Source: a virus
Virus record (IMG/VR): IMGVR_UViG_3300028025_003409
Span: 32,001-96,000 of that record
Reading direction: 5' to 3' (one strand)
DNA length: 64,000 nt
The position numbers and the translations under genes were made by a program. Positions 25,448 through 43,709 of the stretch are shown piece by piece (the stretch's first letter is position 1; each line of letters begins with the position of its first letter). The notes beneath the pieces are model-generated. The model made no database searches. It was given only the letters and a program-made list of their open reading frames with translations, and was not told the DNA's origin.

Positions 25448-25654
25448 ATGACTAAAGTAGAACACTCTCTAAAGTTCGTAACCGAGTTCGATGAAACTCA
25501 CCCAGTAGCACTACAAGCACTATCTATCCCTCACTCAGATTTGGTTGCTATGCTTGAAGGAATGCTAAAAGATTTGCTAGTGCCTGCCCTCGGTCCTGTA
25601 CTTGATGAAATAAATGCTCGTGGCACTTATGCAATTCTAAAGGTGGCCGAGTAA
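25448..25654 (+). CDS. Early hypothetical protein
   Basis: 68 aa ORF coupled to the next ORF (MMTRKDY... 25654-25833). Confidence 0.65.
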   Translation: MTKVEHSLKFVTEFDETHPVALQALSIPHSDLVAMLEGMLKDLLVPALGPVLDEINARGTYAILKVAE

Positions 25655-25839
25655 TGATGACACGCAAGGACTATGTTGCAACTGCTGAAATTCTTTCATC
25701 ATTCAAAGATTTGATAGGTGATGAATTTACTTTTCACGACTTAGTTGATGAATTTGGTTCAATGTTTGAAGCAGATAATCCAAGATTTGATTCAACTAAA
25801 TTTTTTGAAGCGTGTAACAAAGACACTTACTAAATAAAA

Positions 25840-25867
25840 AAATCCTGAGCAAGATTTAAAACTGCTC
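25840..25867 (+). ncRNA. H-type pseudoknot element, copy 1 of 6
   Basis: AAATC-CT-GAGCA-A-GATTT-AAAAC-TGCTC; other copies at 30648, 31286, 31825, 33073 (+) and 43631-43606 (-), with covarying stem 1. Confidence 0.7.
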
Positions 25868-26359
25868 CACACTCAAAATTTTGGGACGTCGCGTTCGGGC
25901 GTGTCGTCCACATGACGCAGATCACATTCAGAATTGAGCGTGAGTTATCCACATGACCTACATCACATTTCAAAATGTCCGATTTGTGGCATTACTGGTC
26001 AGTAGATGTCAGACCCCCCTGCTATACTTACTAGTATAAAGAAAGTCAATCAAGGTGATTGAACTAGAAAGGAATTCAAATGAATTCAACAATTATCAAG
26101 TGTGTAGAACACACACCCTTCAAGTCTGCTATCTCAGAGGTTGCAGATACACAATTTACTTTTTGTGAAATTTGTGAAAATAACATTGAGCGTTGGTATA
26201 ACGATACCGACCCTGAGCGTCTACCAATGTGGACAGATTGGAAGGTATCTAAATGATAGACTTCGTAAAACAATTAGAATTAGAAAACTATCTTGCAGAC
26301 GAGCAAGTAGACCCACTAGCAAAAATGCTAGATGAACTAATAAAGAAAGGAGAATACAA

Positions 26360-26596
26360 ATGAGTCTATCCCTTGCTAATAAAATCGCAAAAGATAAATT
26401 CTTTCTGCCCCCTTCAAAATACATAAACCACAAAGTCGTGGAGATTGTATCTTTAAATGAGGATAGCGGTATCGCTACTGTAATCCTAGAAAAATACACA
26501 ATAGGCAGAAATGCTAATGTGTATAAAAATAATAATGTGTTCACAATTGAATTGCCTTATTCCGAATTTCAAAATCTAAATGGTTGGAGTGAATAA
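26360..26596 (+). CDS. Early hypothetical protein
   Basis: AAGGAG RBS. Confidence 0.6.
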   Translation: MSLSLANKIAKDKFFLPPSKYINHKVVEIVSLNEDSGIATVILEKYTIGRNANVYKNNNVFTIELPYSEFQNLNGWSE

Positions 26597-27239
26597 ATGA
26601 GTACCTATGTACCAATTAAATCTGTATGTGGTGCAGTAACTACCACAATTGACATCTATGACATTGAGTTAAATCCTCACGGAGTAATCTGTTGCGATAA
26701 CTGCAAGTCAATCATTCTATGCCGTAAGGCTTGGGATTTTCTATACAAGGAGAATAAGTAATGCCACTATTTGAATTTACAACATTTATAAATGTTGAAG
26801 CAGAAGACTATGACTCTGCTATTGCTATGTTTGACTCTAATTTAGAGTATGGTGGAATTCGCAGAAGCGATGTTTATGTCGCAGAAATTGAGGAAAAGTA
26901 AAATGAGTTTTTATCAAACCTTTTTTGAAAGTGGCAACGCATTGTTTTGGTTTTCAATGATCTGCTTAGCAAGTGGATTTTATTTATTTGTAAAAGAGTA
27001 GAAAAACGGGACGTCGCGTTCGGGCGTGTCGCCACGCTGTGAGATTTATCACATGGCTTGAGCGTCTCAGTATTTGGACTTACTGGCTAGTAACTTGATA
27101 ATTTGTGAGTAATAGGCTAGACTTACATAGTAAGTAAAAATAAATAAAAGAAAGTCTATCCCACTACGGCGTGTCTAACCGAAAATGTCAGACCCCTATG
27201 GTAGGATAGAATTATCAACAAAAAGAAAGAGGTTGGCAA

Positions 27240-27446
27240 ATGTCAGCAAATGTCTATACAATAGAACACCTACTTGTAGGAACACAATACCGCTCACGAA
27301 CACTATCGGGAGAAATTATCTCAGCAGAGAAACACCCTAACGCAGTTTGGTATCAGGGTTGCGAAAGTTATCTAGTGGAAGTGCGCCCTAGTAATTTTGG
27401 AAAAGTCGTATGTCGCACAGTAGCAGTAAAGGTAGAAAATAACTAA
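27240..27446 (+). CDS. Early hypothetical protein
   Basis: GAGG RBS after the 27186 promoter. Confidence 0.65.
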   Translation: MSANVYTIEHLLVGTQYRSRTLSGEIISAEKHPNAVWYQGCESYLVEVRPSNFGKVVCRTVAVKVENN

Positions 27447-27719
27447 TGGGATACATAGAGATTTTTAGAATTGACAATGAGGGTGCAGGTTGGATAGACT
27501 TGGACAATGCAACACCTAGCGAATTGCTAGACCTAGAAATTGGCTTATTTCAGGAAGGGGCTATCTAATGGGAGTAATGAAAGAATTGCACTTAGAGATA
27601 ACTACTTGCGACCTATGCTATGGCACAGGTTGGCTATACTTTGGCAATAGCGAGGACTTTGATACAGAGTCTTGCGATTGTAACCCACACCAACTATTTA
27701 TAACTAAGGAGAATAACTA

Positions 27720-27938
27720 ATGAACGAATACCTATACTCAGTAACAACAACTAATGACGGAGAGGCTAAGCCGAATTGGATTGGTCGCTACTCAGACGCA
27801 CTAAGTGCCGTTGAAGTTTATCAGAGATTTATTGACCACGGATTTGCTAACGAATTCCGTACAGTAAATTTATCAGAGCCTAGTGGCAAAATGCATACAA
27901 AAATTTTGTATCGCAGTGGAATTGTGGGAGGTAAGTAA
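27720..27938 (+). CDS. Early hypothetical protein
   Basis: AAGGAG RBS. Confidence 0.65.
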   Translation: MNEYLYSVTTTNDGEAKPNWIGRYSDALSAVEVYQRFIDHGFANEFRTVNLSEPSGKMHTKILYRSGIVGGK

Positions 27939-28099
27939 ATGGACATAACTACTTTTGCAAAAGGAATGAGCAAGATTGCTCCGAATTATGGCATAGGGTA
28001 TGATAACTATGGTCAGGTTATTATTTATACTAACCTAAAAGAAACTGAAAATAATCAGTATGCAGAAATGTCAGATAACGATTTTGAGGAGAATAAATA

Positions 28100-28387
28100 A
28101 TGGGATCAGTTACAGCAATTGGATTAGCGGATAGCGTATTGGATTTAGAAACTCAATTGGCGTATCACTTACAGGGTAATCACTATCCACCCGTACCACT
28201 TTCTATGGTTCAGCCTTGCATAGAAGCAATTGACGCATACTATGATGAGGACTATGACCGATTTATTGCTATGCCTGAAGGCGTATTCTATAAGGGAATG
28301 AGCCACGCACCTGCCCACGCAATTGTAGACCAACACCACTTGTCTTGGTTTATTGACCCAGTAGACGAATTTGAAGATGAGGAATAA
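28100..28387 (+). CDS. Early acidic hypothetical protein
   Basis: GAGGAG RBS; HLQGNHYPPVP motif. Confidence 0.7.
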   Translation: MGSVTAIGLADSVLDLETQLAYHLQGNHYPPVPLSMVQPCIEAIDAYYDEDYDRFIAMPEGVFYKGMSHAPAHAIVDQHHLSWFIDPVDEFEDEE

Positions 28388-28388
28388 A

Positions 28389-28631
28389 ATGAATGCTACA
28401 ATGAGCGACATGGAACTAATCGAGGCAGATACACTTGCACCAGACCAACTAATGATTGGTGATTTAATAAAAGTAAACAATGACATTCTTGAAGTTATTT
28501 TTATTGAAAGTGATTCTACTGGAGATAACTACGATGTACAAGTAAAAAATGAATTTGATGAATTAGAAATAATTCAATTTGCTTATACTGATTCTATTCC
28601 ATTGTATGTTTTTATTGACTACGATGAATAA
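28389..28631 (+). CDS. Early acidic hypothetical protein
   Basis: GAGGA RBS before ATG 28389; LxxGDxI motif. Confidence 0.6.
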   Translation: MNATMSDMELIEADTLAPDQLMIGDLIKVNNDILEVIFIESDSTGDNYDVQVKNEFDELEIIQFAYTDSIPLYVFIDYDE

Positions 28632-29166
28632 GTAAAACTATTTTTATGCACTTCCCCGCATAAAAATGGGACGTCCCGCAGTCGGGCGTGTCTGTGTATA
28701 TCCTGTGGATAACTATGTGCTACTCATGAGTAACCCTTTAAATATTTCTTTAAGATAGTTTATTTTATTTTCCCCGATTCTGGGCAAAATTTTTTGTGAT
28801 TTTTATCACACGATCAGGATTTGACATTTTTATGATATGTGTGTTAGTATTGTTATATGAAAAAAACAAATGAGGAACTCCGCAGGCTTATGGAACTACG
28901 CCGTAGCAACGCTGCCTCTGCCGTGCCTTCTAAAAGGGCTTACAATCGAAAGAAATGTCAGTCCGAACTGTTACAATATAAATATCAACAAAAAGGAGAA
29001 TAGCCCATGACCTACGAAAACGATGAAATGCTAGATGAATACTATGCAACTGTATGCCCCTCATGCAAAGAAAATGCGGTAGACGCATATGAAGATAAAT
29101 GCACTCATTGCTTACTAGAAGAAATGTCTGTCCACTATAACGAAGACATTGCTCTAGAAATGAGTC

Positions 29167-29907
29167 TTGGCCTTGACTACTGATACACTTAAACTTAAAC
29201 GCTCTAATGATAGAAAGGTGGCTAATCTTGTCACAAAAAATGGAAAGCAAGCCGCAATCGCAAATACCTTTGGACTACCTGCTGGAAAGGCTTTCTCGTG
29301 CCCTGGTGCCACTAGCGTATGTGAAAGCGTGTGCTATGCAGGAAAACTCGAAAAACTCTTCAAAGGCGTAAAGGCTAACCTCTTACACAATTGGACCTTA
29401 CTTAAGGACGCCGATCAATTAACTATGGAGACACTGTTAACTGAAATGATTAACGATTTCCGTGCAGACTGTGTAAAGAAAGACGCCCCTATGCTATTCC
29501 GTATCCATTGGGACGGAGATTTCTTTAATGATATATACACTCATGCATGGAAGAATGTAATCAATAACAATCCTGATATTCAATTCTGGGTATATACCCG
29601 TGTTAAGTCTGCTGCACTTATACTTAAGGATGTATCTAATCTATCATTGTACTTCTCTGCAGATAGTGAGAATGTAAAAACCGCCGTTGACTTAAAAATT
29701 AATAGTGGCGTACGTATGGCATACCTTGCTAAGAACTTTGCTATTGGTCAAGCCGATGTAAAAGAAATGATAGGCAGACCTGCTGCTAAGTGTCCTGAGA
29801 ATAATAAACAAATTCCACTTATCTCAACTAACGGTAGCGCTTGCGTTTCATGCTCACTTTGTGTATACTCTAAGAGTGATATCATATTCTCTGCGAGTAA
29901 AAAATAA
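29167..29907 (+). CDS. Mycobacteriophage Gp88-like (radical-SAM-related) protein
   Basis: FGLPAG..SCPGAT..C...CYA; FRIHWDGDFF; FWVYTR; C-terminal CxxCxxC. Confidence 0.75.
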   Translation: MALTTDTLKLKRSNDRKVANLVTKNGKQAAIANTFGLPAGKAFSCPGATSVCESVCYAGKLEKLFKGVKANLLHNWTLLKDADQLTMETLLTEMINDFRADCVKKDAPMLFRIHWDGDFFNDIYTHAWKNVINNNPDIQFWVYTRVKSAALILKDVSNLSLYFSADSENVKTAVDLKINSGVRMAYLAKNFAIGQADVKEMIGRPAAKCPENNKQIPLISTNGSACVSCSLCVYSKSDIIFSASKK

Positions 29908-30709
29908 ATGAGCACTGCATTCTATTTTTGGATAATGCTAATACTACTAATAAGTTTATTAGGTGGTGGTGGTTGGTGATGATCCCCTGAAAAATGGGGA
30001 CGTCGCAAAATCTTTGATTTGTCAAATTACGACACGCATAAAAAATGTGGGGTTTATCACACTAGAAAATGTCATTTGGATTAGGATTTATGACATTTTT
30101 ATGCTAAAATTATACTATAAGCAAAACCCCCACAACAGAAAGGCAAGACCCAAATGACACTAGGCGGATACACTTACCAAATTGGTGATTTATTCACAAC
30201 CAGCAAAACAGGCATTACGGGACGCATTAGCGATTTCACCCCTGTCAATGCTAAACTAACTAGAGTTTCATTACGCTTGGCAAACGGCGCACACCGATTT
30301 GCTATGGTAAAGACCTCTAAGTAATCTCAAAATGTGAGAAAATGTCGAAATGGATTTGACATTTCTACAAGCAAAATGTTATACTTAGGTATAACCAAAT
30401 AACAACCCCTAACAGAAAAGAGAAAAAACAAATGGCAGTAAATACAGCAACATACAAGGTCGGCGATACTTTCACGACACAGAAGTCAAAGGTTAGCGGA
30501 GTAATCACAGAGATTACACCACAGGCTAACGGAAATGTCCGAGTAAAGTTAGATGTAGATGGCAAGCCACGCTACACAACTTGGACGGCTAAGTAATCTA
30601 ATTACTAAGTGTCGGGCGTACAGGCACTATAAATAAGGGGCGAGAACGAACCTGAGCAAGTTCCAAAAAGGCTCAACACCCCCACTAACAGAAAAGGAAA
30701 CAAAAACAA

Positions 30710-31132
30710 ATGGCAAGAGGCAAAGCAATCTCAGTAAAAATCCCTACTCAACGAGTAATCACCGCACTAGAGTCTGCACTAGCAAAACTAGAGTCAGACT
30801 ACGCATCACAAGAACAAAAGGAAGCACAGTACCAACTTCTATACAAGGCTTGGCAGAAAGAGTTAGCAGATTTCGCTATTGCTAATTTCTCAAAGGCTGA
30901 GAACATTAGAACAAACTTCCGTTCTTGGAACAAGACCCTCAACATTGACTTCGACATTATTGGTAGCGAAAGCAATTTCCCTGCTGAACCTGAGAAGCAA
31001 CACGAAACTATCCATCAGCACACTTATCGTGAGCAAAAAGAGGAAATGCAAAATGCAATTCGTATCCTCAAAATGACAGATGAGGAAGTTGTAAATACTT
31101 CCACATACAATGCGGTTGCTCGCTATCTCTAA
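30710..31132 (+). CDS. Early hypothetical protein
   Basis: AAAGGA RBS; helical 140 aa ORF. Confidence 0.7.
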   Translation: MARGKAISVKIPTQRVITALESALAKLESDYASQEQKEAQYQLLYKAWQKELADFAIANFSKAENIRTNFRSWNKTLNIDFDIIGSESNFPAEPEKQHETIHQHTYREQKEEMQNAIRILKMTDEEVVNTSTYNAVARYL

Positions 31133-31386
31133 GTGAGATTGGGTGGGGTGTAAAAGCCCCACTCATTATCCCCTGAGTTCCACGCTATTTATAGCAAGTG
31201 TCCCCTGGGGATCCTTCGCCAGGCTGATTAGGGCGATAACAGAAATACTATAGAGCCAGTTCACACCAACTGCAAGAAGTGTAACTACCTGAGTAAGTAT
31301 CAAAACTGCTCCCCGCAAGGGTCCTTGACAAATGTCAGTGGTCTCGTGTACAATTAAATTAAACAAACTAACAGAAAGAGGCCCCC

Positions 31387-31806
31387 ATGGACCAAACAAC
31401 AAACACAGTAGTGAATGCCACAGAAGACTTTCTTCGTGACTCACTAGCCAAAGCAACATTGCGTGTTACAGAATTAGAGGAGCACATCTCTAAGGTTACG
31501 CAGCGCTCATATGCAGAGTCTGCAGATAAGAATCGTATCGTTGAAGCAATGCAAGAGTGGACCCTTGGGGCCCTTGAGCACGGCACCATTGATGAATCAG
31601 ATGCAGAAGAAATTGCAGACATCTGTGGATTTGAACTAACGAAAGAATTCGAAGTTGAAGTCACAGTCATGTATTCGGTTACCGTAAATGCTCGCACTGA
31701 AGAGGATGCACAGAATGCAATTCATGATATTGATTTTGATACTGTAGACTACAATTCAGATTCAATTTCATATCTATCATCCTCAATTGATAGAGTTGAC
31801 ATTTAG
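31387..31806 (+). CDS. Early acidic hypothetical protein
   Basis: GAGG RBS after the 31333 promoter. Confidence 0.7.
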   Translation: MDQTTNTVVNATEDFLRDSLAKATLRVTELEEHISKVTQRSYAESADKNRIVEAMQEWTLGALEHGTIDESDAEEIADICGFELTKEFEVEVTVMYSVTVNARTEEDAQNAIHDIDFDTVDYNSDSISYLSSSIDRVDI

Positions 31807-32042
31807 TAGGGGGCTACTAACAAAAGACCTGAGCATGTCTGTACGTAAACTGCTCATTTTTAAAATCCCTCAAAATTTGGGACGTCCCGCCGACCAGTCA
31901 TTGTCAAATCGACACGCCGTTTACGAAGGGTGATCTTTGCCACAATGTTCGATTTATCCACATCTAACTATCCCGATTTGCATATGTCAGTCAGTCCTGC
32001 TATACTTAGAATTCAACAACAAAAAGAAAGAAGGAAAAACCT

Positions 32043-33065
32043 ATGGCACATGACCTAGAAACTCAAAACGGAAAAACATCTTTTGCGTCTTTCCGTGAAC
32101 CTGCTTGGCATGGATTGGGTACCGTATTCACAGAAGAGAAAACAACCGCAGAAATGCTAGAGGCTGCAAACCTCAATGGTTGGAATGTTCGTCTTGAGGA
32201 TTTGGAAACCCCTACACATCTAACAAGCGACAAGGCGTACCAATATGTCTTGCGTACAAATCCTACCGACAACACACAAACCGATATTCTTGGTGTAGTT
32301 GGTGAGCGATACCATGTTTTGCAGAATGAAGATTTATTCTCATTCGGTGATAACATTCTTGACGGCGGAGGTCGTTGGGAGACTGCTGGCTCAATCAAGG
32401 GTGGTCGTGTCGTGTTCGGTGCATTAGCACTAGAGCGTGAAACAATTCTTGACCCTAATGGTGTTGCAGACAAGGTAAAAACTTATTTGCTCATCAACAC
32501 ATCACATGATGGCTCAATCGCTATTCAAGCAAGCATTACACCCGTTCGTGTCGTGTGCGCTAACACTCTCAATCTTGCGCTTGGTGGCGTAGGTCGTAAG
32601 AAGAATAAGGGTATCAAGCAATCTTTCAAGATTCGCCATACACAAACTGCAAATGGTAAAGTGCAAGTTGCTCGTGAGACTCTTGGTCTTGCTAATGCAT
32701 ACATGAACGAATTCGATATCATGGCTAAGGCAATGATTGAGAAAGAAGTTTCTGCTAAGCAATTCAACGACATCATTCTTGCTGCTTACGCTAAGCCTGA
32801 AAAGGATTCTAAGGGTTCACTAAAGAAGTGGGAAAATAAAGTTGATGTTATCAACGATATTTACACTGGTGAATTCAATGGAATGATTGCGGGTAATGCG
32901 TGGGGTGCTTTCAATGCACTAACCGAACGCCTTGACTGGTATCGTTCTGCTCGTGGTGGTTCTAACGAATCTATCCTTGCAAGCGCAAGCGGATTTGACC
33001 CTGCTATCAACGCAGAAAAAAATCGCTTACTAAAAGTTGTGCAGAATGTAATGTCTCTCGCATAA
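32043..33065 (+). CDS. DUF932/DUF945 (TIGR03299-like) protein
   Basis: PAWHGLG; LGVVGERY..LQNE; ETAGSIKGG; NTSHDGS; PVRVVCANTL. Confidence 0.85.
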   Translation: MAHDLETQNGKTSFASFREPAWHGLGTVFTEEKTTAEMLEAANLNGWNVRLEDLETPTHLTSDKAYQYVLRTNPTDNTQTDILGVVGERYHVLQNEDLFSFGDNILDGGGRWETAGSIKGGRVVFGALALERETILDPNGVADKVKTYLLINTSHDGSIAIQASITPVRVVCANTLNLALGGVGRKKNKGIKQSFKIRHTQTANGKVQVARETLGLANAYMNEFDIMAKAMIEKEVSAKQFNDIILAAYAKPEKDSKGSLKKWENKVDVINDIYTGEFNGMIAGNAWGAFNALTERLDWYRSARGGSNESILASASGFDPAINAEKNRLLKVVQNVMSLA

Positions 33066-33106
33066 TAAAAAAATTCCTGAGCAAGAATAAAAACTGCTCA
33101 CCATTT

Positions 33107-33180
33107 GGTCCGTTAGAATAGTTGGTTAGTTCGCCACCCTGTCACGGTGGAGGTCATGGGTTCAAGTCCCATACGGATCG
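33107..33180 (+). tRNA. tRNA-Asp(GTC)
   Basis: Acceptor GGTCCGT/ACGGATC; anticodon arm CCACC-CTGTCAC-GGTGG; GGTTCAAGTC T-loop. Confidence 0.92.
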
Positions 33181-33371
33181 CAAGTAAATAAATATGCAAC
33201 GCAATGTATAAAAATTTGGGACGTCCCCTGTGACTTACATCACATGAGATTTTTAACTAAATAACTTTACGATAGGGTGATATTTTCCCCAAAAATTCTT
33301 TACGATAGATTTGACTTTTTCCCCAAACCATGCGATAATTAATATATAACCCACTAAAAAAGGAAAACCCC

Positions 33372-33797
33372 ATGAGAGACAGATCAAAAGGATATATCGG
33401 TCAAATCGTTGACGGTAAAAAGTTAGCCACAATTGCAAATAATATCTATCGCCTACAGTATAGTAATGACTTTAGTGAGTGTACTGTAGATAATCTACTG
33501 TTCATTACCCTCGAAGAAACCAATGTCTTTGGAGACAACAAGTACGCCTTGGTTTGTTCAGAAGGAGTGGGCTGGGAGCAAGATACTTATGGATGTCTAG
33601 AAGTACCAACTAACATTGGCCAAATGGGTCTATGGAATGGAAGAGTATTTATATCAGTAGATACCGTTAAGGAATGTCTAACAGATCAAACAGAAGACAT
33701 TGCAGACTATGTCCGTGTCTTTGGAGACAGACTAGATAGGAACTGTTCCCTGTGGCAGTCCAAGATGTCAGTGCCTAGTGCTATGATAAATGCATGA
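33372..33797 (+). CDS. Hypothetical protein
   Basis: TTGACT promoter and AAGGA RBS upstream. Confidence 0.65.
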   Translation: MRDRSKGYIGQIVDGKKLATIANNIYRLQYSNDFSECTVDNLLFITLEETNVFGDNKYALVCSEGVGWEQDTYGCLEVPTNIGQMGLWNGRVFISVDTVKECLTDQTEDIADYVRVFGDRLDRNCSLWQSKMSVPSAMINA

Positions 33798-34097
33798 ACA
33801 CAATAAATGACCTTATAAACGAAATCTATGACGACAACTTCTCTCACCTTGAGTTTGAGGAGAATATGGGCGGTATCGATTGTGACTGCCATATCCACAC
33901 TACACTAAACACTATTGCTAAGTATGCAGGGATTGAGGTAGGATAATGTTAGGCTATACTGAAACTGATATTGCAGTAATGACAGATGCTATGGAAGACG
34001 CTATCAAATCAGGTAGGCTCTCTGATGAGATAACAGATGGTTTGGAGAAGGCTATGTCTTTCTTTGATGGCCTATGGGCAGAAGGGTATTTTGACTA

Positions 34098-36676
34098 ATG
34101 AAAGTTAGAATCAGTCTTGAACAAACCATTGATATAGATGATGCTATGTCTAATGATATAGGGTTTGAACTCTATGGTCCCCCTGACATGAGCACTGAAG
34201 ATAAAGTAGATTATCTAATGGCTCGCTTTGCTGAGGACATAGACACTATGGTAAAGTATGATGAAGTATTGGGTAACATCTCAGTAGAATACATAGAGGA
34301 CTAATATGTGGAGTAGGTATACCTTTGTTTGTGATCCTGATGAGTGTGATGCCCTGGTTGAGTTTACTGCTAGGGATGACTTTGGATTTCCCCTGGGAGT
34401 TGTCGAAATGAGATGCCCTTGTGGTAGGATGTTAAACTATATTAGTTATGAAGAAGCCTATCAACCGATCATTACAGATGTGAGCAAGGTCACACCCCGT
34501 ACAGTTGTCAAAATCGACTCGAACCCGTATAATTAATATATGAATACAATTATAGAATATATGAAGTTACACCTGCTCAGTCTTGAACAAGACTCTGCTC
34601 ACCTTGAAAAGCAAATGGATGCTTATTCTAACTATGAGGATGATGACTACCGTATGCTAGAGATTGAAGATATCTCTACTAATGGTCAGATTATCGCTAC
34701 CGCCCACCTTTTGTCAGTGGCTCAGGGTATGATAGAGTAATGGAAACAACACAACTAGAGCCAAGACTGCAAAGACTCATTGACCTAGGAGAGTCAGGCA
34801 CTGACATACTCCATGGTGAACTCAAGAACTTAATGCTTGAGGCCGAAAAGGAATTCCTTGAGGCACAACAGATTGAAGAAGACAACGACTACTCAGACGC
34901 TATGGAGTCTATGGAGCGTAAGTACTGGGAAGGCCAGTGCGACGCATTAGCCCATGTCTATGCATTAACTTATCAACTAGCATTTGCTCTCAGTGACAGG
35001 ATAAAGAACAATGGATAAGTTTATCGAAATGGACTTTGACGAGTGGTGTGAGACCTACAAGCCAATCGTTAATCATATAGATACAAATGCCTCATTTGAC
35101 AATGGCGAGGGTGGCATTATGTTTGAGACCTACGGCGACGAGGTTGAGTTTGTAAAGCAGCAAGACGCTAATAAGATATGGATGTATGGGGACGGAGACG
35201 ACGGTGGAAGTTATATCTGGTCTGGTTGGGGCTTTGTTAATAGGCTTGGTTATTTTATCACTGATAAACCTTGCCCAGATAATGTGACCATTCAGGTACG
35301 AGTTAGTTACAATTGGTTCTACTGTGAAAACTGTGGGGCTGAGTTTGAAGACCCTGATAATACTATCAGAGATAAGTTTGATGAGGCCGATTTGGAAAAA
35401 TGCCCAAATTGTGCTACACTTGAAGAAATGACCCAAATAGAAAAAGGAGACCCAATGAAAGAAAATGAGCAAGTAGACGAAGTACTAGTAGACCCTGAAC
35501 TGCTAAAAGATGTTTGGTTTGATTTAGGCAAGGACGGTAAGTAATGTCAACATACAAAGTAGAAGTAATCTTTGAGCCAACAGGCGACTACATGAATTTT
35601 AGATACGAGGCGGAATCAGACAATGAAGAGGACCTCTGCAGAGAAGTATTAAACCAACTATCAATTGTATCTTGGAAGGATGAAGAGTAATGGGAGCACG
35701 GATTAACTACGTATTCAAAGACAGTGAGCAGGGCCCTATGGTTGCTCTATACAGCCATTGGGGTGAGACTGAGTGGCAGCGGGACCTAGCAATGGCGCTG
35801 CAGCATGCAAAACCCCGCTGGCAAGATTCTGCATATGGTACACGGATGATCATTAGTTATCTTATGCAAGACAGCATTCTAGAGGAGACAGGCTTTGGTA
35901 TTTACGCTATTAGCAATGACGGGTCCCTTGACCTAGGTGACCTTACAGTACTAGTCGACTTCACTACCAATACTGTTACTGATAGAGTTTCGGTACCGTT
36001 TGATAAATTCATGGATGCATATCTACCAGTTTTAGTTGAGCAGGCATAGATCTAGGGTCAGACTGTGCCTAAGGGTGGGGGTAAGCGTGGGGCTTGCCTC
36101 CCCCTAACTTTTGCGGTATAATGGAAGAGAGGAGGGACTATGGCGTATTCAGTAAGACGGAAAGCAGAGCATAACAAAGAGTCAAGAAAAGCAGAGCAGT
36201 TGGCAAAACTTCTTACAGAAGATTTCTCCATAGACCTAGAACGGGTTGGATACTATCTAGTAAGAAACATGCCCACAATCGTGTTTCATAGATTTGATGT
36301 TTTAGCCTTGACAGCACAAGAAGAGTATGATAAACTAATGGCAGAGATGAAGGGTAGACTATAAATGGATTTTGCAGATAAGGCTGGAGCGATTGGTCAG
36401 TTATGGATTGAGTTCCGTAATGATGAAGATTTCTCGGCATTCATGGATTACAACGACCTAGGTTGTCCAATGGCATACATGGTGGCAGAAGGTTTGATTA
36501 AAGAACTTACACCTATTGGTGAAGAGATGATTACTGAAACATTTAAGATGTTTCTAGAGTTAGTTAATGTTACAGAGGAAGAGATTGACTCTGTACTTCC
36601 AGATAAGAACCTTGGTTCTATCTTGGTCTTTGCTCACAATAAGAAGAAAAACTCAACACCAGACGAAGAAGAGTAA
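34098..36676 (+). CDS. Run of small, mostly acidic hypothetical ORFs (34098, 34306, 34540, 34740, 35011, 35690, 36140, 36365)
   Basis: Tightly packed or overlapping ORFs; 35011 carries a CxxC..CxxC zinc ribbon; 35690 has a YSHWG motif. Confidence 0.6.
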
Positions 36677-36739
36677 CAAGATTATCCTTGATCCCTGGGC
36701 TTGACAAAAGCCTGGGGTTATGGGACGTCTCAGGACGTC

Positions 36740-37700
36740 AAATCGGACATATCGGACAAACCTCTCAAACCTTATATTTCTAAAAATAAGATTACGAAGG
36801 GGTTTTTTCTTTTCCCCAATCATGGACAAACCATCTTTCTCAAAAAAAGATTACGTAGCACAAAAACCTTTCCCCATTCATGGCTTATACCATATCAAAC
36901 CTTGTTTGTCAAACCTTTATATTTGGTGTTATAATAAAGATATGAGTCCAAGACACTTTGCAAACTATGCAAAACAATATCCTAAACAATATCAGGCATT
37001 CTCCGATAACATGTGGAATAGTTTTGTAGGTATTACTCATACTATAGGTTTGGGTAGATTCTTTTCATTCACCCCCGAATTTTTAGCGCCCCCGCTCACC
37101 AAGGCATCTGGCGTTTTTGCTGAAGCAGATCTTGAAGCATTAGATCCCACCAAAATCGGGCGGGAATTAGGCAAGGTATACAATCAAACACTACCTGATA
37201 ACAAACCTCTATAGTATAAAACCCTCTATAGAATAGATTACGAACCCTTGATTATTTTTCCCAGAGTTTTAGAATATTATCCAAACCTTTATATAATTTT
37301 ATAAAGGTTTTCTTTATTTTCTGAGCAAATTCGAACAAATTTCATATGAATTTTATGGGCATATTCATGCATAGAAGGACTTGACAAACCATGGTTTTGC
37401 ATGTATAATGCCCAAACCTTACTATGGGAAAGAAGGTTTGACAATATCGGGAATATGTGGTAAGAAGGTTTGAAGGTTTGGGATATGGAGGTTTGGCCGT
37501 AAGAAGATTACGACGCCTTCTATAAAAGCGCTCTATCCTCCACTACTCTCCACTTTACTCCACTTCTAGACTATCTAATTAAATAATCAGTAACATTTAT
37601 CTGTGGATAAACCTGTGGATAACTATGATCAAAACCTTACAAACCAGACATTACGAACCTAACAATATATCTCCCAAACCTCACAACCTGTGGATAACTG
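36740..37700. repeat. Iteron-like CAAACC(T) and GATTACG repeats with DnaA boxes (origin candidate)
   Basis: About 11 CAAACC copies on +, 4 inverted copies at 37435-37495; GATTACG at 36790, 36849, 37236 and 37506; DnaA boxes at 37602, 37614 and 37689. Confidence 0.55.
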
Positions 37701-37807
37701 CTATACTATAACTATGCTAAATGTCCTATGCTTTGACTGTGGTGGTATGTTCCAGGTATCATATGAAACTCCAAACCCTACTAAACAATGTCCAAAATGC
37801 CAGGGGA

Positions 37808-38119
37808 TCAAGTCTCCTTTATAGCCTTGTTGACCATACGGATCAAACCTCGTCTAGTGATCTTACTAGCATCAAATGTCTCCGTATAGCCCCCTTGTGG
37901 CATATCCGCCTTATCTAGAAAATAACCATGCTTTGCCCTTAGTGTTCTTAGTACTAGGGTTTCTACTGTTCTCGCTTTATCCCGTTCGAAAAAATACCAA
38001 TACTTGACGAGTATCCATCCTTTGGTCCTATGGCTTGCAAACCTCTTGCCTGAGACATCAGATATCCCTATCTTGACAGCCTTGTATACTGGGCTGTATA
38101 GGATGTATAGTAGGGTCAT
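37808..38119 (-). CDS. GIY-YIG/T5orf172-like nuclease-domain protein
   Basis: LYILY...VKIGIS...R...E...GYTETF. Confidence 0.6.
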   Translation of the reverse strand: MTLLYILYSPVYKAVKIGISDVSGKRFASHRTKGWILVKYWYFFERDKARTVETLVLRTLRAKHGYFLDKADMPQGGYTETFDASKITRRGLIRMVNKAIKET

Positions 38120-38341
38120 TACTCTATTATACTTGACATACCGTGCAAAATTGGATATACTTGAAGTATGACTAATCAAGAGATATCTGACCTATTAAAT
38201 AAAGAATCTTACAAGGTTTGGGACACTGCTAAAGTAATTAAGAACCAAGACTACCATGATGGACTGGTTAAGGGTTTGAAGATGGCTGCTCAGTTTGTTT
38301 CTAAACTTGACTAAACCCTCAACTTAAGGTATACTGGATAT

Positions 38342-38572
38342 ATGCAACTATTTATGAGCGAGTATGCCTCGTGGGTGCTCGCTGTCATTGGAGTCACAGG
38401 CATCTTCTTTGTTGGTCGTAAGACCATTTGGGGATGGTTCGTACTCCTATTCAACGAAGTTCTTTGGATAGCCTATGCCCTATATACAAACCAGTATGGC
38501 TTTATATTTAGCGCACTTGCCTATGCAGCAGTTTATCTTAAGTCATACCTACACTGGAGGCGTGAAGAGTGA
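38342..38572 (+). CDS. PnuC-like small membrane protein
   Basis: Three TM segments; K.IWGW...N..LW. Confidence 0.5.
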   Translation: MQLFMSEYASWVLAVIGVTGIFFVGRKTIWGWFVLLFNEVLWIAYALYTNQYGFIFSALAYAAVYLKSYLHWRREE

Positions 38573-38980
38573 AGCCTAAAGAGTGTGTAAAGTGTAAGAT
38601 GGAAGTCAAAGATCCTTTATTCTGGGATACACATCAGACTATGACAGATGACTGGATTTGGTGTGCTAAGAAATCTTGAGATACCTGATCCATTCCAAAC
38701 CTTTGTAGCCAAAAAATATGCTAACGCTAAGGGTGCTGTCTATGACTTCTTTAGCGGTGAATGGTCTTATACCTGTGGTGCTTGCAAAGAGCCTTTATCT
38801 GGTCCGTCCCGCAAAATATTGACAAAGATTCGCCTATACCACAGTAGAAATGAGTGCTTAAATGGATACTGAACAAACCTTCGATCAAGAGTTTAGTGTT
38901 GAAGAGATTACGAAAGCCATTGTAGATCAGGCTAAGGCTGATGTTAAGTCTCGCTATGGAAATAAGAAAAGACATAGACA

Positions 38981-39241
38981 ATGAGATCTTGTAGTGCCAT
39001 TACGAAAAAGAAAAAGCCATGCCCAATTTATGTTGATGACTGGCGTACCGTTGATCTTTGCCATGTACATGATCCAAATGGAAAGTTTAGAACACAGGTA
39101 AGAAATGGCACTACCAGAAGGCTAAGGAAAGAGAACTCTCCTAAGGCTAAGAAAGAGTGTCAGCATACTTGGTATATGCGTGAGGATGGTATACAATGTA
39201 CTAAGTGTCTAGTTATATGGGAGAGCGATGAAAGAGCCTAA
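38981..39241 (+). CDS. Cys/His-rich zinc-binding protein
   Basis: CSAITKKKKPC...CHVH; CQH...CTKC. Confidence 0.55.
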   Translation: MRSCSAITKKKKPCPIYVDDWRTVDLCHVHDPNGKFRTQVRNGTTRRLRKENSPKAKKECQHTWYMREDGIQCTKCLVIWESDERA

Positions 39242-39884
39242 GATTGCACAGATGGATTGGCGTAGCCTAGGTTACTGGCCTATCTGGAAAGATGGAAAGA
39301 AAGTGTGGGTGCCTAAGGATGATAAATCATTCGACAAAGACACAAAGAACTAAGATATGGCCTTTACGATGGATAGGAAATTTTCTTGGTGGCTATGCTG
39401 GTAATCATTTAGTTAAGTGTGTTAATATGGATGAGGATGAAGAGCATGGCCTTGCCTATAAGTACCACGCAAAAATGTGGAAGTATCTTAATAAGCCCTA
39501 TGAGTGGTGGGGAACATACTACACCATAGATATGGATGCTTGGAGAGAAGAGTTAGATCAGATGAAGTTAGACATGTCTGGCTCTGGTTGGGATGATTAT
39601 GATGAGTTTGGTAAGGCATATTGGGATAAAGAAACAGATAGCGAGTCGCAAGACTCGTAGGGTTGTTTAAGTATCTCTATTTTGCGCCGAACTTTAAAAA
39701 CTTGACATCCATCCGCCGAACCTGTATAATTGGTATATGAGTATAGACGAAATGATTTTGCGAGAAGAAATTGCAAGGGCTATTGAGGCTTTGCCCATTG
39801 AACCATCAAAAACAAATGCTTTGGGCATGCGTATTGCTGCTGCTCAAATAGCAAGGGGAGACGATAACTATATGACTAAAATGT

Positions 39885-40694
39885 TTGAATCTCAGGTCGA
39901 CTTTGAATAAAGATCTAAACCTAACTAAAGAAGAGTGGCTTGGCTTTGCGGTAAACAAAAGTATCCTAAAACCATCTAACTCAAATGAATGTGTTATTGG
40001 TGGATACATTGAAGACTTTTCTTATGATGATGTAGACATATACGACACCAAGTTCTCAAGCGTAGATGATGTAGACTATTGGTTTACTATTGGTACGATG
40101 CATGGTTGGCTTGGTAAGACTGGTTGTGTTAAACATGAGTTAGATAAGTTTAACTTTGTTTTTACCCTGCAAGATATAAAGATCCTCTACCCAGATAAAC
40201 TACCAGAGATTAGAAAAAGAACTCATATACCAGAGAACAAAGACTGGTTTGCATATCAAGCAAGTGAGCCAGAGATGACAAAAGAACTTCTTGGCAAAGC
40301 CTTAGAGTTTTCTTACTGTAACACACTAATAGACATTGGCTGTGGCCTTGGAGAAGTACTAAAGATTGGCATAGATGCTGGGTACAAGAATGTAATGGGC
40401 CTTGAGATACAAAAAGAATTGGTTGACCTAGCAAGAAATGATGAAAGATTAGAAATAATTCATGGATCTGGATCAGATTACATCTTGCCAGACAAACAAC
40501 TTCATGTGTTTATGTTTAATCCATTTAGTAACAATGTCATGATAGACTTTTTAGATAACAATATAGAAAACATTAAGAAAAATAAGTCTTTAGTTATATA
40601 CAATTATGCATTTTCTGGACACCATTTGATGGTCATGTATGGTCTAAAGATGATATATACCAATAACTTTGCAATTATTTATGCTGCAGATTAG
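39885..40694 (+). CDS. Protein with a C-terminal class I SAM-dependent methyltransferase domain
   Basis: LIDIGCGLG, GLEI and FMFNPF motifs. Confidence 0.75.
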   Translation: MNLRSTLNKDLNLTKEEWLGFAVNKSILKPSNSNECVIGGYIEDFSYDDVDIYDTKFSSVDDVDYWFTIGTMHGWLGKTGCVKHELDKFNFVFTLQDIKILYPDKLPEIRKRTHIPENKDWFAYQASEPEMTKELLGKALEFSYCNTLIDIGCGLGEVLKIGIDAGYKNVMGLEIQKELVDLARNDERLEIIHGSGSDYILPDKQLHVFMFNPFSNNVMIDFLDNNIENIKKNKSLVIYNYAFSGHHLMVMYGLKMIYTNNFAIIYAAD

Positions 40695-41459
40695 ATATGA
40701 TATAATAAAGTATGGCACAAAAATGTTTCTATTGCGAAAAGACTGCTGAGTATAATGACTTGGTTAAAGAAGGTGACAACTATGTCGTTACTGGTGTATG
40801 CAAAAAACATTGTAACAATTACCATGAGGCATCTTGAGTCAAAAAAGACATAAAAAGAATCTTAAGAGAAAATCAAAAAAGCCAAATACATCTAAGTTTG
40901 AAAGAAAGATTAAAAGAATCAGGGATAAGATTATTAATGATGCTCTTGTAACTATTCGAACAAATCTTCCAAGCAATCTGGACAAAAAAATGTTGGAAGA
41001 CCGTCAGAGTGACGCATTCCTCCGTAATAAGAGTGCCCATCCCAACTCTCTTTTATAAAATCACTAGTCATATATCCATAAACATATGGCTTTTTGTTAT
41101 CATGATCACAGTATTCCATTTTTCTCCTAAAATATCTTAGTATACAGTTATATTGTATCATATAATGGACTTTACAAAGACTGGGCCTTAGTGTATACTT
41201 ATAATATGACAAACTTACTACTACTTATACCTGCTTTTATTGCTGGATACCTTGTATGCTATTTTATAATGACGCAAGGTGTTGATCAAGAGGATACCAA
41301 TACATGAGTTTAATGACACAAGAAATAGTTGATAACTTGCCTAGAGAAGTAAAAAAAGCAGTTATAAAAGAATATCTTCAGACAACATATTATTGGTCTG
41401 TTGGTCTTTTTTCTTTTCTTATTGGAGTATTTTCAACATTACTAATTAAATAAATTTAA

Positions 41460-41533
41460 GCACCAGTAGCCAAGTTGGTTAAGGCCCCGAACTCATAATT
41501 CGGTTATCATAGGTTCAAGTCCTATCTGGTGTA
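41460..41533 (+). tRNA. tRNA with CAT anticodon (elongator Met or Ile2)
   Basis: GCACCAG/CTGGTGT; CCGAA-CTCATAA-TTCGG. Confidence 0.9.
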
Positions 41534-41537
41534 CTAA

Positions 41538-41610
41538 TGGGGATTAACTCAGTTGGTAGAGTGGCGAACTGTTAATTCGCAAGTCGCAGGATCGAGGCCT
41601 GCATCCCCAG
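41538..41610 (+). tRNA. tRNA-Asn(GTT)
   Basis: TGGGGAT/ATCCCCA; GCGAA-CTGTTAA-TTCGC; atypical T-loop GATCGAG. Confidence 0.85.
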
Positions 41611-41614
41611 CAAT

Positions 41615-41687
41615 GTCTCCATGGTCTAGTGGCCTAGGACTCCACCCTTTCACGGTGGCAACACGGGTTCGAATCCCGTTGGAGATA
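41615..41687 (+). tRNA. tRNA-Glu(TTC)
   Basis: GTCTCCA/TGGAGAT; CCACC-CTTTCAC-GGTGG; GGTTCGAATC. Confidence 0.92.
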
Positions 41688-41691
41688 CTAA

Positions 41692-41764
41692 ACCTCTGTA
41701 GTTCAGTGGACAGAACGATGGACTTCTAAGCCATGCGTCGCAAGTTCGATTCTTGCCAGGGGTA
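41692..41764 (+). tRNA. tRNA-Arg(TCT)
   Basis: ACCTCTG/CAGGGGT; anticodon loop CTTCTAA; GTTCGATT. Confidence 0.88.
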
Positions 41765-41894
41765 CTTTACTTTTTAGGATGTTTTGGTTCGTATGGTTCA
41801 ATCTTAGATTTAATACGACCATCTTTATATAGTCTTACAATCCAACCATCTTTAATTTGCATTGGATTAAATGCATGTGCTTTTTTCTTTGGCA

Positions 41895-42581
41895 TTATAA
41901 TGTGTGTCTTTCTGTTTGATTTCTTGTATAATCTTTTCCAAAGTCAGCAAACAAGGCTTTATCTTTTTCACGATTAACAATCCCTCTTGACCAAGAAAAC
42001 CCTGCATCTCCACCCCACGCTAACCACATAATGTAGCCATTAGATGGGTTTGCTGAGTTGCCCCAGTCCTTACCCTTCTTATCTACTTCATGGCGTGAGA
42101 AATATGAGTACATTCTCTTGACAGTACTAAGAGAGATTGTTTCTCCTCTTGCTAACTGCCCTGCACGAGTCCAACCTACAGATGTTCCAGCACCATTAGC
42201 CTTACCATCTTCCTTAAACTTAATTGCTCTGCGAGCAGCAGATCGTGCTCCAGCAGGTGGTGAGTATCCATCAGCCTTTGAAACCGTGTCTGTATCATAC
42301 TCAACAGTATCATCATCTTCAAATAGATCATCTGCTTTTGCAGCAGGAACACAATTAGGAACTGGTTTTCCATTATCTCCTGGCTTCATGCCACGCTGTA
42401 CATAACCTTCCCAGCATGGATCAGCCTTTCCAATTGATGAGTCATACATGGCCATAGAAACCTCTGAATCGGTGTTTGGAGAGCATACAGGACAGTCTGG
42501 GCAGTCTACATTAAGTTCTTTGCAAGTCTCACATTCGCAACCCTGATATGTGCTTGTAGGCATCATTGAATCATCTATCAT
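41895..42581 (-). CDS. Conserved phage protein (CWxGY module and PPxGARxAARR domain)
   Basis: PCWEGYVQRGMK...VPNCVP; GTSVGWTRAGQLA..E.ISLSTVKRMYSYFSRH; WGGDAG. Confidence 0.65.
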   Translation of the reverse strand: MIDDSMMPTSTYQGCECETCKELNVDCPDCPVCSPNTDSEVSMAMYDSSIGKADPCWEGYVQRGMKPGDNGKPVPNCVPAAKADDLFEDDDTVEYDTDTVSKADGYSPPAGARSAARRAIKFKEDGKANGAGTSVGWTRAGQLARGETISLSTVKRMYSYFSRHEVDKKGKDWGNSANPSNGYIMWLAWGGDAGFSWSRGIVNREKDKALFADFGKDYTRNQTERHTL

Positions 42582-42601
42582 TAGATTAGTATACCATATA
42601 C

Positions 42602-43186
42602 TTAAAAATCAACTGGCTCCAGCATAGACTCATCAACATCACAGACTAAATTAATAACAATAGAAAACCTAAAATCTGCTTCATTTGGAAACTCCCAGTT
42701 ATGGAAAATATCACCATCAAAAAATAAGGCATACCCAGCCTTTGGGGTAAATGACTTATATAATTCTAGGCTATCCCCATCTACATGTTCTCCAGTATAC
42801 TTCTTGCTATAAAAATTTGTGCTTCCATCGGCATCGTTAGCATAATAAACAAGGTTATAGTTTTTAACAACTCTTCTTAGATCTACATGGGGTTCCATTG
42901 GCCTTGGATCATTTGTCTTGCAGGTTAAGTTTGCCCTGCCTCTCAAAATCTTGTGAACAGTCACATTGTTTTTAGCAGCAAACCTTTCTATAATATAGTC
43001 CACAATATCTTTATCCAAAGGCTCATTAACTAAGATTCCCTTGTCAGAATACTTACTTCCAGTCAAGCCAACAATTCCATCTTTTGCAGCGTTAGGACGC
43101 ACAAAAAGATATGGTAAACCCTGTATCTTATTTTTTAAGTAAACAACTTCTTCTGGTGTTAAAAAATTATTGGTATATTTATACAT
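42602..43186 (-). CDS. 2OG-Fe(II) oxygenase
   Basis: PHVD; YYANDADG.T; FDGDIFH; RFSIVIN. Confidence 0.8.
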   Translation of the reverse strand: MYKYTNNFLTPEEVVYLKNKIQGLPYLFVRPNAAKDGIVGLTGSKYSDKGILVNEPLDKDIVDYIIERFAAKNNVTVHKILRGRANLTCKTNDPRPMEPHVDLRRVVKNYNLVYYANDADGSTNFYSKKYTGEHVDGDSLELYKSFTPKAGYALFFDGDIFHNWEFPNEADFRFSIVINLVCDVDESMLEPVDF

Positions 43187-43197
43187 ACTTTATTATA

Positions 43198-43470
43198 TCA
43201 TGACTGACCATTAAGCCTATTGTGAGTTCTAATCCTATGACAGTTAGCACACACTACTTCACATTTTTCGATCTCTTTCTTTATAGACTTCCAAGAAAAA
43301 CCATCATGAATCATTCTTGACACATTATATTTCTTATCTCTTATATGGTCAAAATCTAAGATAATATGATTATTGATTCCACAATCTACACAGCCAGAAT
43401 CTTCTTTTATCTTAGCAAGTTTTCTTTTATACTCTTGCTTATTATAGATATCTAACTCTTTGTCAGTCAT
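43198..43470 (-). CDS. HNH-like endonuclease
   Basis: CVDCG...DFDH...CEVVCANCHRIRTH; ATG 43470 after TATAAT. Confidence 0.75.
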   Translation of the reverse strand: MTDKELDIYNKQEYKRKLAKIKEDSGCVDCGINNHIILDFDHIRDKKYNVSRMIHDGFSWKSIKKEIEKCEVVCANCHRIRTHNRLNGQS

Positions 43471-43497
43471 TGCTTCTATTATACCCTGCAATATTAG

Positions 43498-43582
43498 GGC
43501 CCCACACAGGCAATTCACCTGACTTGCGCCACGGTCTCTATCCAATGGGTAACTAATCCATCACTAAGGTCCTGTGTGGGAC
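43498..43582 (-). ncRNA. Candidate structured sRNA A (about 85 nt)
   Basis: TGCTACAAT extended -10 six nt upstream; 12-bp terminal stem GTCCCACACAGG/CCTGTGTGGGGC; internal hairpins including a GCAA tetraloop. Confidence 0.6.
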
Positions 43583-43603
43583 AATTATATTGTAGCATAG
43601 GAA

Positions 43604-43709
43604 ATGAGCAGTTTATAGACTTGCTCAGGTCCCCCAAGTTGCGATCTTGGGCTTATCCGTACTCAGCAATAGGGTTGCTAAAAGCAACTGCATGTATCAT
43701 GACGGAATA
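43604..43709 (-). ncRNA. Candidate structured sRNA B ending in the pseudoknot element
   Basis: TATAAT at 43721-43716; stems TCCGT/ACGGA, GTTGCT/AGCAAC, CCCAAG/CTTGGG; then GAC-CT-GAGCA-A-GTC...TGCTC. Confidence 0.55.

Follow-up and report, generated by a model that had tools for sequence, protein, structure and literature searches.

Among the described RNA elements that come closest to the one reported here is the coremin motif (xrRNA_C), a compact knot of plant and fungal RNA viruses that is found, together with its Watson-Crick variant xrRNA_WCC, in beny-, cucumo- and other eukaryotic RNA viruses (PMC6546385, PMC10520033, PMC10321173). Its first hairpin carries a loop with the consensus YGAD or YGNNAD (PMC10520033), and a second hairpin directly downstream is required for its resistance to Xrn1 (PMC10321173). 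The present analysis concerns an RNA element of similar build in a 64,000-nucleotide stretch of phage DNA (hereafter the window), corresponding to bases 32,001-96,000 of the 109,057-base-pair (bp) virus record IMGVR_UViG_3300028025_003409, which has direct terminal repeats. An earlier note, made from the letters of the window alone, had proposed that six copies of a pseudoknot with a covarying first stem stand there at transcript 3' ends. Judged by its sequence, the element is a compact H-type RNA pseudoknot of ~30 bases, and its comparison across phages and bacteria, described below, bears on both its fold and its possible role.

Both stems of the pseudoknot are real. A 19-base version of the motif matched at least 119 IMG/VR contigs, and those loci, together with the genome under study, provided 185 distinct copies that were selected by sequence pattern alone; a BLAST search with the low-complexity AATC copy gave few true matches. 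In the 185 copies, positions 2, 3 and 4 of stem 1 (S1) pair in 185, 184 and 156 cases, compared with ~80-90 when the partners are shuffled, and position 5 pairs at chance level, so that S1 is a stem of 3-4 bp. The closing pair of S1 is C-G, rarely G-C or U-A, and in 179 of the 185 copies it is followed by an A-U or U-A pair at the second position; the proposal that S1 changes in sequence while its pairing is kept is borne out by these figures. Stem 2 (S2), described earlier as near-invariant, does look invariant within the window but covaries across phages. A search for stem-2 variants, in which up to three mismatches were allowed and S2 pairing was not demanded, gave 260 matches against 20 in reversed sequence; the compensated variants are GGGUA or GGGCA with UGCCC (12 copies), AAGCA/UGCUU (6) and GAGUA/UACUC (2), and wobble intermediates are present as well, namely GAGUA/UGCUC (16) and GAGCA/UGCUU (5). 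When 150 copies are placed in a gap-free alignment, 94.6% of the cells pair, compared with 78% after shuffling and 24-39% when the strands are slid, and changes on both sides are seen in seven of the ten pairs, including all four of S1 and three of the six of S2; the two stems are interlocked and each has support from covariation, as the definition of an H-type pseudoknot demands. The G-U pairs are confined to the sense strand, their antisense equivalents being A.C mismatches, which indicates that it is the transcript that folds, not the DNA duplex or the antisense strand. A generic pseudoknot descriptor was uninformative, with ~16,000 matches in real and reversed sequence alike.

Variation of the same kind is found at a single orthologous junction, the one between the open reading frame (ORF) of 340 amino acids (aa) and the tRNA-Asp gene that enclose the fifth copy of the window (Table 1). 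The protein encoded by this ORF has 430 close relatives in IMG/VR and falls in PHROG 1221 (function unassigned). In the best 80 of these 430 loci, where the protein is 91-99% identical, the junction retains the pseudoknot in 78, with ten versions of S1 and six of S2; in the AGGCA/UGCCU version, two adjacent S2 pairs have been exchanged. The 340-aa ORF is also ~52% identical to proteins that Streptomyces phages (Navo, NootNoot and others) encode close to their left end.

From 5' to 3', the element consists of an A-rich leader, the S1 5' strand NN[A/U]C, a first loop (L1) made of one C, the S2 5' strand UGAGCA, a second loop (L2) of one base, mostly A or U, the S1 3' strand G[U/A]NN, an A-rich third loop (L3) of the form NNAAAC, with insertions of up to 5-6 nucleotides (nt) in a minority of copies, and the S2 3' strand. 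S2 is best drawn with 5-6 bp as UGAGCA/UGCUCA, the A after GCUC being present in 69% of the copies, and the tail that follows is poor in G and has first C, then a richness in U, its first two bases being mostly C. In coaxially stacked H-type knots, one base spans the deep groove of a 6-bp S2, and five to six A-rich bases run along the minor groove of a 4-bp S1; the loop lengths of the element agree with these classical rules. Nested folding recovers only S2, with -4.7 to -6.7 kcal/mol, and neither stem is stable alone, so that only the knotted form with its tertiary packing can underlie any function.

All six sites of the earlier note are present in the window at the places and on the strands that it gave. 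The exact pattern CTGAGCA-N4-16-AACTGCTC matches four times in the window, against 0.00 matches expected from 100 shuffles, and a relaxed pattern finds exactly six copies, with no other match, in the whole 109,057-bp genome. A covariance model trained on 150 copies, all of them from other phages, returned exactly these six (E = 8e-13 to 8.5e-6), the next-best match in the genome being partial (E = 0.03). Each copy lies in sense orientation after an ORF, again as proposed, five of them on the plus strand among small plus-strand ORFs and one on the minus strand within a minus-strand block. The S1 pairs listed before hold in that pairing is present at all six sites, but the core in copy 1 is AATC/GATT and not AAAUC/GAUUU (a fifth A-U pair beyond this core is possible), and copy 6 has GGAC/GTCT with a G-U pair. 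The S2 3' strand of copy 2 reads GGCUC, which turns the A-U pair at the junction into an A.G mismatch; this 'AAAAGGCUC' form has 11 distinct examples elsewhere. In copy 3, S2 is GAGUA/UGCUC, where a U-G wobble keeps the pairing, and L3 of copy 4 is longer than usual by 4 nt. No Rfam 15 family matches the element: at gathering scores nothing but tRNA was found in the window, and at E values up to 10 no match fell at the elements. Literature searches for the motif and for phage exonuclease-resistant RNAs yielded no description of the element.

Table 1. Copies of the pseudoknot and the adjoining tRNA gene, in window coordinates, with covariance-model scores.
Feature	Position	Strand	Score	Stem 1	Stem 2	Remarks
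Pseudoknot copy 1	25839..25872	+	46.7 bits, E = 3.9e-12	AATC/GATT	GAGCA/UGCUC	
Pseudoknot copy 2	30646..30679	+	38.3 bits, E = 1.4e-9	GAAC/GTTC		
Pseudoknot copy 3	31283..31316	+	38.4 bits, E = 1.3e-9	UAC/GUA		S1 of 3 bp only
Pseudoknot copy 4	31823..31860	+	25.7 bits, E = 8.5e-6	AGAC/GUCU		
Pseudoknot copy 5	33071..33104	+	48.9 bits, E = 8.4e-13	AUUC/GAAU		
tRNA-Asp gene	33107..33181	+				Directly 3' of copy 5; arrangement message / pseudoknot / tRNA
Pseudoknot copy 6	43601..43634	-	39.3 bits, E = 6.8e-10	GGAC/GUCU		One G-U pair in S1

The element also has a narrowly defined place with respect to stop codons. Among 176 copies, 82 start 0-10 nt past an ORF of the same strand and 113 within 20 nt, whereas the opposite strand has no comparable peak of ORF distances. 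The start codon that follows lies at widely scattered distances, and it is the stop codon upstream, not this start, that anchors the element. The gap that separates the stop codon from the S1 closing C is never 0-7 nt; its commonest size is 8-9 nt (43 copies), and the probability of such an empty zone is ~1e-12 under a flat model of 0-40 nt. In the window, the closing C is 10 nt past the TAA stop both in copy 1 (ORF 25654-25833) and in copy 5 (the 340-aa ORF, 32043-33065). With the stop codon in the A site, the first S1 pair would stand ~12 nt downstream of the P-site codon's first base, a distance that lies just past the ribosomal helicase site. At this spacing, the knot would be at the shortest distance from the stop codon that still spares it from unwinding by the terminating ribosome.

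A second association is with tRNA genes: in 32 of the 185 copies a tRNA of the same strand (Asp, Arg, Ser, Leu or Met) begins 4-12 nt after the element, and in none of the 185 does a tRNA precede it within 60 nt. In copy 5 the paired core (S2) stops 7 nt before tRNA-Asp. The window has a further cluster of four tRNAs (Met, Asn, Glu, Arg; 41460-41765), separated by gaps of 3-4 nt, and no pseudoknot stands before this cluster, unlike the single tRNA-Asp. A third association is with signals of transcription termination. A U-rich run follows 39 of the 185 copies (21%), compared with four of 185 control windows (2%; p = 5e-9), at a variable offset of +1 to +8 after S2 and not flush with the stem; the distance to the next ORF differs only slightly between the copies with such a run and the others. 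By crude ORF and terminator calls, 9 of 183 copies have an ordinary hairpin-plus-U terminator in the 150 nt that follow, a lower share than the 72 of 583 for other gene ends with a gap (p = 0.0036). These features, that is, the placement after stops, the adjacency to tRNAs, the enrichment of U-tracts and the lower number of ordinary terminators, favour the 3'-end and processing options among the functions listed in the earlier note, which had named a 3' exonuclease block, a processing or termination signal, and a decoy binding a ligand or protein; the sequence does not settle the list. The sites are taken here as presumptive transcript 3' ends.

Hundreds of unrelated phages carry the pseudoknot, from IMG/VR as well as from culture, the cultured ones spanning at least five bacterial phyla, and it is also present on some bacterial contigs; the groups represented are phages of Alphaproteobacteria, Actinobacteria, Firmicutes, Cyanobacteria and E. 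coli, crAss-like phages, and the chromosomes of Saccharibacteria. In the cultured phages, which were confirmed with the covariance model, the element lies after ribonucleotide reductase in Roseobacter phage SIO1, between the single-stranded DNA-binding protein (SSB) and tRNA-Gly in Arthrobacter phage Amigo, after the portal gene and in degenerate form in Bacillus phage Page, and before primase in crAss-like phage cr7_1; Clostridium phage phiCT19406B has the AAGCA/UGCUU variant, E. coli phage phiEcoM-GJ1 a weak stem 1, and Synechococcus phage S-H35 is also a carrier. The site upstream of the DNA primase of cr7_1 (L222:1158-1231) is a tandem pair, with a degenerate CUUAGCA variant (E = 0.16) 15 nt before the canonical copy. 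Bacterial assemblies, represented by one genome per species, contain the strict pattern in 92 stretches, with S1 paired in 81 of 83 copies, and some of these contexts are plainly prophage, with minor capsid or scaffold genes or an antirepressor. A common neighbouring gene family was looked for and none was found, the bacterial contexts yielding only small orthologous groups. The unrelated gene sets and the presence of bacterial chromosomes among the carriers make a dedicated phage protein partner unlikely, against that part of the earlier list, and the spread across phyla argues for a universal machine or for a mechanism intrinsic to the RNA.

Some bacterial loci deserve separate mention. On Saccharibacteria contigs (L191:553-590, L152:5507-5545), single chromosomal copies lie amid small ORFs without a Pfam match, in the neighbourhood of housekeeping genes (pyruvate kinase/PGK/Clp ATPase; trigger factor/HisRS), in an arrangement conserved across several species. 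A genome-wide use in Saccharibacteria was considered and rejected, each of the three genomes scanned having one copy. The chromosome of Candidatus Tepidiaquacella proteinivora (G004:C1:1030749-1037951; L203) has five copies within 7 kb, beside repeated 'CTCAATTCCACTATGG' strings, in a region that is probably a mobile element or prophage. In loci of Firmicutes/Clostridia (L145, L160, L162, L170, L185), the pseudoknot is followed by the conserved string CCGCC-N4-6-CCGCATCA-N2-TGATC, which suggests a larger composite element in that group.

The window itself encodes a ribonucleotide reductase, tail-fibre-like genes and five tRNAs, and its plus-strand block has many strong sigma-70-like promoters and only two weak terminator-like sites. 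Between 25000 and 44500 on the plus strand, near-consensus sigma-70-type promoters are dense (e.g. TTGACA-17-TATAAT at 37381 and 39702) and hairpin-plus-U terminators almost absent. Four of the six copies have a promoter-like site downstream, two of these sites being located by scan and two by eye: copy 3 is followed by a small CCC-GCAA-GGG hairpin and a TTGACA-18-TACAAT site (31325-31354); the next site after copy 4, which follows ORF 31387-31806 and is itself followed by a U-run, is at 31977-32006; and an extended -10-like sequence is found after copy 6 (TGCTACAAT) and likewise after copy 1. A further promoter-like site (33311-33339) lies beyond copy 5 and tRNA-Asp. The string TATAAATA, the consensus of T4-type late promoters, occurs at 30629-30636, ~10 nt upstream of copy 2; if it is used, copy 2 would lie at the very 5' end of a transcript. 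Another string, the word CTCAAAATTTGGGACGTC, follows two of the pseudoknots (25873-25912 and 31869-31890), the first instance having one extra T. After copy 1 it runs into a stable hairpin at ~25882-25912, within a 123-nt fold of -35 kcal/mol (z = -1.9), and similar 'TTTTGGG(C/A)G ... GTGATC' strings are found behind the pseudoknots of related loci (e.g. L087, L115, L085, L027). The CTCAAAATTTGGGACGTC region may be a second conserved non-coding element or a small RNA.

The explanation preferred here, to which a probability of roughly 0.45 is given from the sequence comparisons, is that the pseudoknot, as a roadblock made of RNA alone, sets and shields the 3' end of the message upstream and that, in a subset of copies, it would serve as a terminator structure too. 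The element would lie in the 3' untranslated end of the message of the upstream gene and would fold by itself into a tightly packed knot, a mechanical roadblock. Once transcription has ended, or the RNA has been cut downstream, 3'-to-5' exonucleases would trim the message back and halt at the knot; the clearest case of a downstream cut would be that of RNase P at a tRNA following the element. The upstream message would thereby acquire a stable 3' end at a defined place. In copies with a U-run immediately behind them, the knot would probably also take the place of the 'hairpin' of an intrinsic terminator. Translation would be survived through the spacing, the knot occupying the position nearest to the stop that is not unwound by the terminating ribosome, and the strong conservation of sequence would reflect the tertiary contacts within such a small fold, not a dedicated protein. 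A wider form of this reading, which is put forward more tentatively, is that the element may be the bacterial-world counterpart of the viral exonuclease-resistant RNAs, a knot of 30 nt that needs no protein to halt the enzymes of RNA decay, that ribosomes leave intact owing to its exact spacing, and that phages of most bacterial phyla use to split long transcripts into separately stable messages and to set these off from tRNAs.

Several observations weigh against a protective roadblock. The secondary-structure energy is far under that of known exonuclease-blocking hairpins, and pseudoknots of similar size, of the frameshift type, failed to stop Xrn1 in vitro (PMC10321173). Each of five wholly scanned cultured carriers has one or two copies, which are few for a general end-cap. 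As regards termination, 79% of the copies lack a U-run, the depletion of ordinary terminators has the crude basis mentioned above, and 101 of 151 scorable copies lie between co-directional genes. Copy 2 has no sigma-70-like promoter between its end and the next ORF, which begins 31 nt further on, at 30710; with no visible promoter there, read-through must occur at least at this copy.

The alternative that survives best, although it is unlikely, is that the element is in the first place a signal to bacterial RNA polymerase, a pause or termination signal of the pseudoknot type, in which folding of the knot inside the RNA exit channel would terminate or attenuate transcription at the boundaries of gene cassettes, any effect on RNA stability being secondary. 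The enrichment of U-runs, the rarity of ordinary terminators and the promoter-like sites after four of the six window copies would all be accommodated, and RNA polymerase, being universal, would suit the conservation across phyla. Nevertheless, most copies have no U-run and, where one is present, its offset varies; the two bases after S2 are mostly C; and many copies are followed, with no intervening promoter, by a tRNA after 4-12 nt or by an ORF after 20-60 nt, genes that efficient termination would silence.

The spacing from the stop codon could be read in another way, namely as the mark of a translation insulator, in which a knot at the mRNA entry of the terminating ribosome keeps ribosomes that have terminated, or subunits that scan, from sliding into the next unit, or tunes termination or recycling in some other way. 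The sharp optimum of 8-9 nt and its hard floor recall the geometry of frameshift and read-through stimulators, and in vitro, knots of the coremin type promote frameshifting and bring scanning ribosomes to a halt (PMC10520033, PMC10321173). About a third of the copies, however, are more than 20 nt from any ORF of at least 50 aa, and the avoidance of unwinding by the ribosome explains the spacing equally; this role is judged improbable. The frame relative to the stop codon shows only a weak preference (49, 47 and 26 copies in the three classes), and in-frame stops inside or before the knot, read by eye in copies 1 and 5, exclude read-through products at these two. Recoding, whether by read-through or by frameshift, was rejected on these two grounds.

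The near-invariance of the loop and S2 sequences, while S1 varies freely, would also be expected of an aptamer, whether of riboswitch type or recognised by a conserved RNA-binding protein of the host, with the conserved loops as binding pocket, and the short P1, the A-rich tail and the short P2 do resemble the preQ1-I aptamer. Such a role is judged improbable: none of the Rfam riboswitch models gives a match, even at E = 10, no neighbouring gene family recurs, the element stands after genes and not before them, with several copies per genome at unrelated genes, and the carriers appear to have no obvious phage protein in common. Finally, the DNA itself could be the active form, with the element a hot-spot of recombination or an operator bound by a protein at the borders of exchangeable cassettes (cf. 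the promoter/stem-loop cassettes of T4 type) and the RNA fold incidental. This reading is very improbable, since the tolerance of G-U pairs on the sense strand only, the variation of up to 6 nt in the spacing between conserved blocks, the compensatory changes in both stems and the lack of any rationale for a ribosome-sized exclusion zone after stops speak against it, even if small promoter-ORF units are bordered by copies, relatives with a 91-99% identical flanking protein differ greatly in the element and in the cassettes upstream of it, and TGAGCA and TGCTCA form an inverted repeat.

Should the roadblock reading be correct, the element would be a universal and portable RNA module of ~30 nt, common to phages, that sets the end and the lifetime of messages, and would represent an uncatalogued layer of phage gene control. 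It would offer a compact RNA-stabilising part for synthetic biology, a small fold new to structural study in which nearly every base is conserved, and, for the annotation of phages, a marker of true gene ends and of the borders of transcription units. The ribosome-sized exclusion zone after stops gives a clean link between translation termination and RNA structure.

With respect to known bacterial elements, intrinsic terminators and 3' stabiliser stem-loops, such as repetitive extragenic palindromic (REP) elements and the RNase III-processed hairpins of T7, share with the pseudoknot a place just past stops and, in a subset, a U-run, and at gene ends the pseudoknot tends to stand in place of ordinary terminators. 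It differs from terminators and REP elements in being a pseudoknot with a low secondary-structure energy, not a long GC-rich hairpin, and in a sequence that is conserved across phyla, as theirs is not. The preQ1-I aptamer (RF00522) is likewise an H-type knot, of ~34 nt, with a P1 of 4-5 bp, a short P2, and an A-rich 3' tail in the minor groove of P1, but its loop sequences are others, and it stands in the 5' leaders of queuosine or preQ1 genes, whereas the phage element has multiple copies per genome; an assignment to preQ1-I was rejected on the lack of a model match at E values up to 10 and the location 3' of unrelated ORFs. A tRNA-like acceptor of the turnip yellow mosaic virus (TYMV) type does not fit either, ACCA following only 21 of the 185 copies, many of which, by eye, appear to be homologous tRNA-Asp leaders of one phage group.

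Among viral knots, the -1 frameshifting pseudoknots of luteoviruses and enamoviruses, that is, of beet western yellows virus (BWYV), sugarcane yellow leaf virus (ScYLV) and pea enation mosaic virus 1 (PEMV-1), resemble the phage element in their size of ~27-30 nt, an L1 of 1-2 nt that starts with C, one junction base, an A-rich L3 along a short S1, and a spacing of ~5-6 nt from the A-site codon. In the phage element, the codon upstream is a stop, S2 is longer, and S1 is shorter and AU-rich; a function as -1 frameshift stimulator was rejected, as copies 1 and 5, read codon by codon, have no slippery heptamer and meet an in-frame stop within five codons. With the coremin motif, in vitro a roadblock to Xrn1 and scanning ribosomes alike, the phage element has in common a hairpin of 3-4 bp with a loop that is paired to a stretch a few bases further 3', an A-rich linker ending in ...UAAAC(U), a near-invariant sequence across very different viruses, and a placement in 3' untranslated regions and between genes. 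The loop of the phage element is the octamer CUGAGCAN and not YGAD or YGNNAD, its second base being U in 150 of 150 aligned copies, and a second hairpin is not enriched, as one lies within 0-4 nt in 38 of the 185 copies, compared with 40 in the upstream control and 29 after shuffling. The two elements also differ in S2, which has 5-6 Watson-Crick pairs in the phage element and three, or non-canonical ones, in coremin, and in the setting in which they would act, since the hosts of the phage element are bacteria, which are without Xrn1, and the likely direction of protection is 3'-to-5'.

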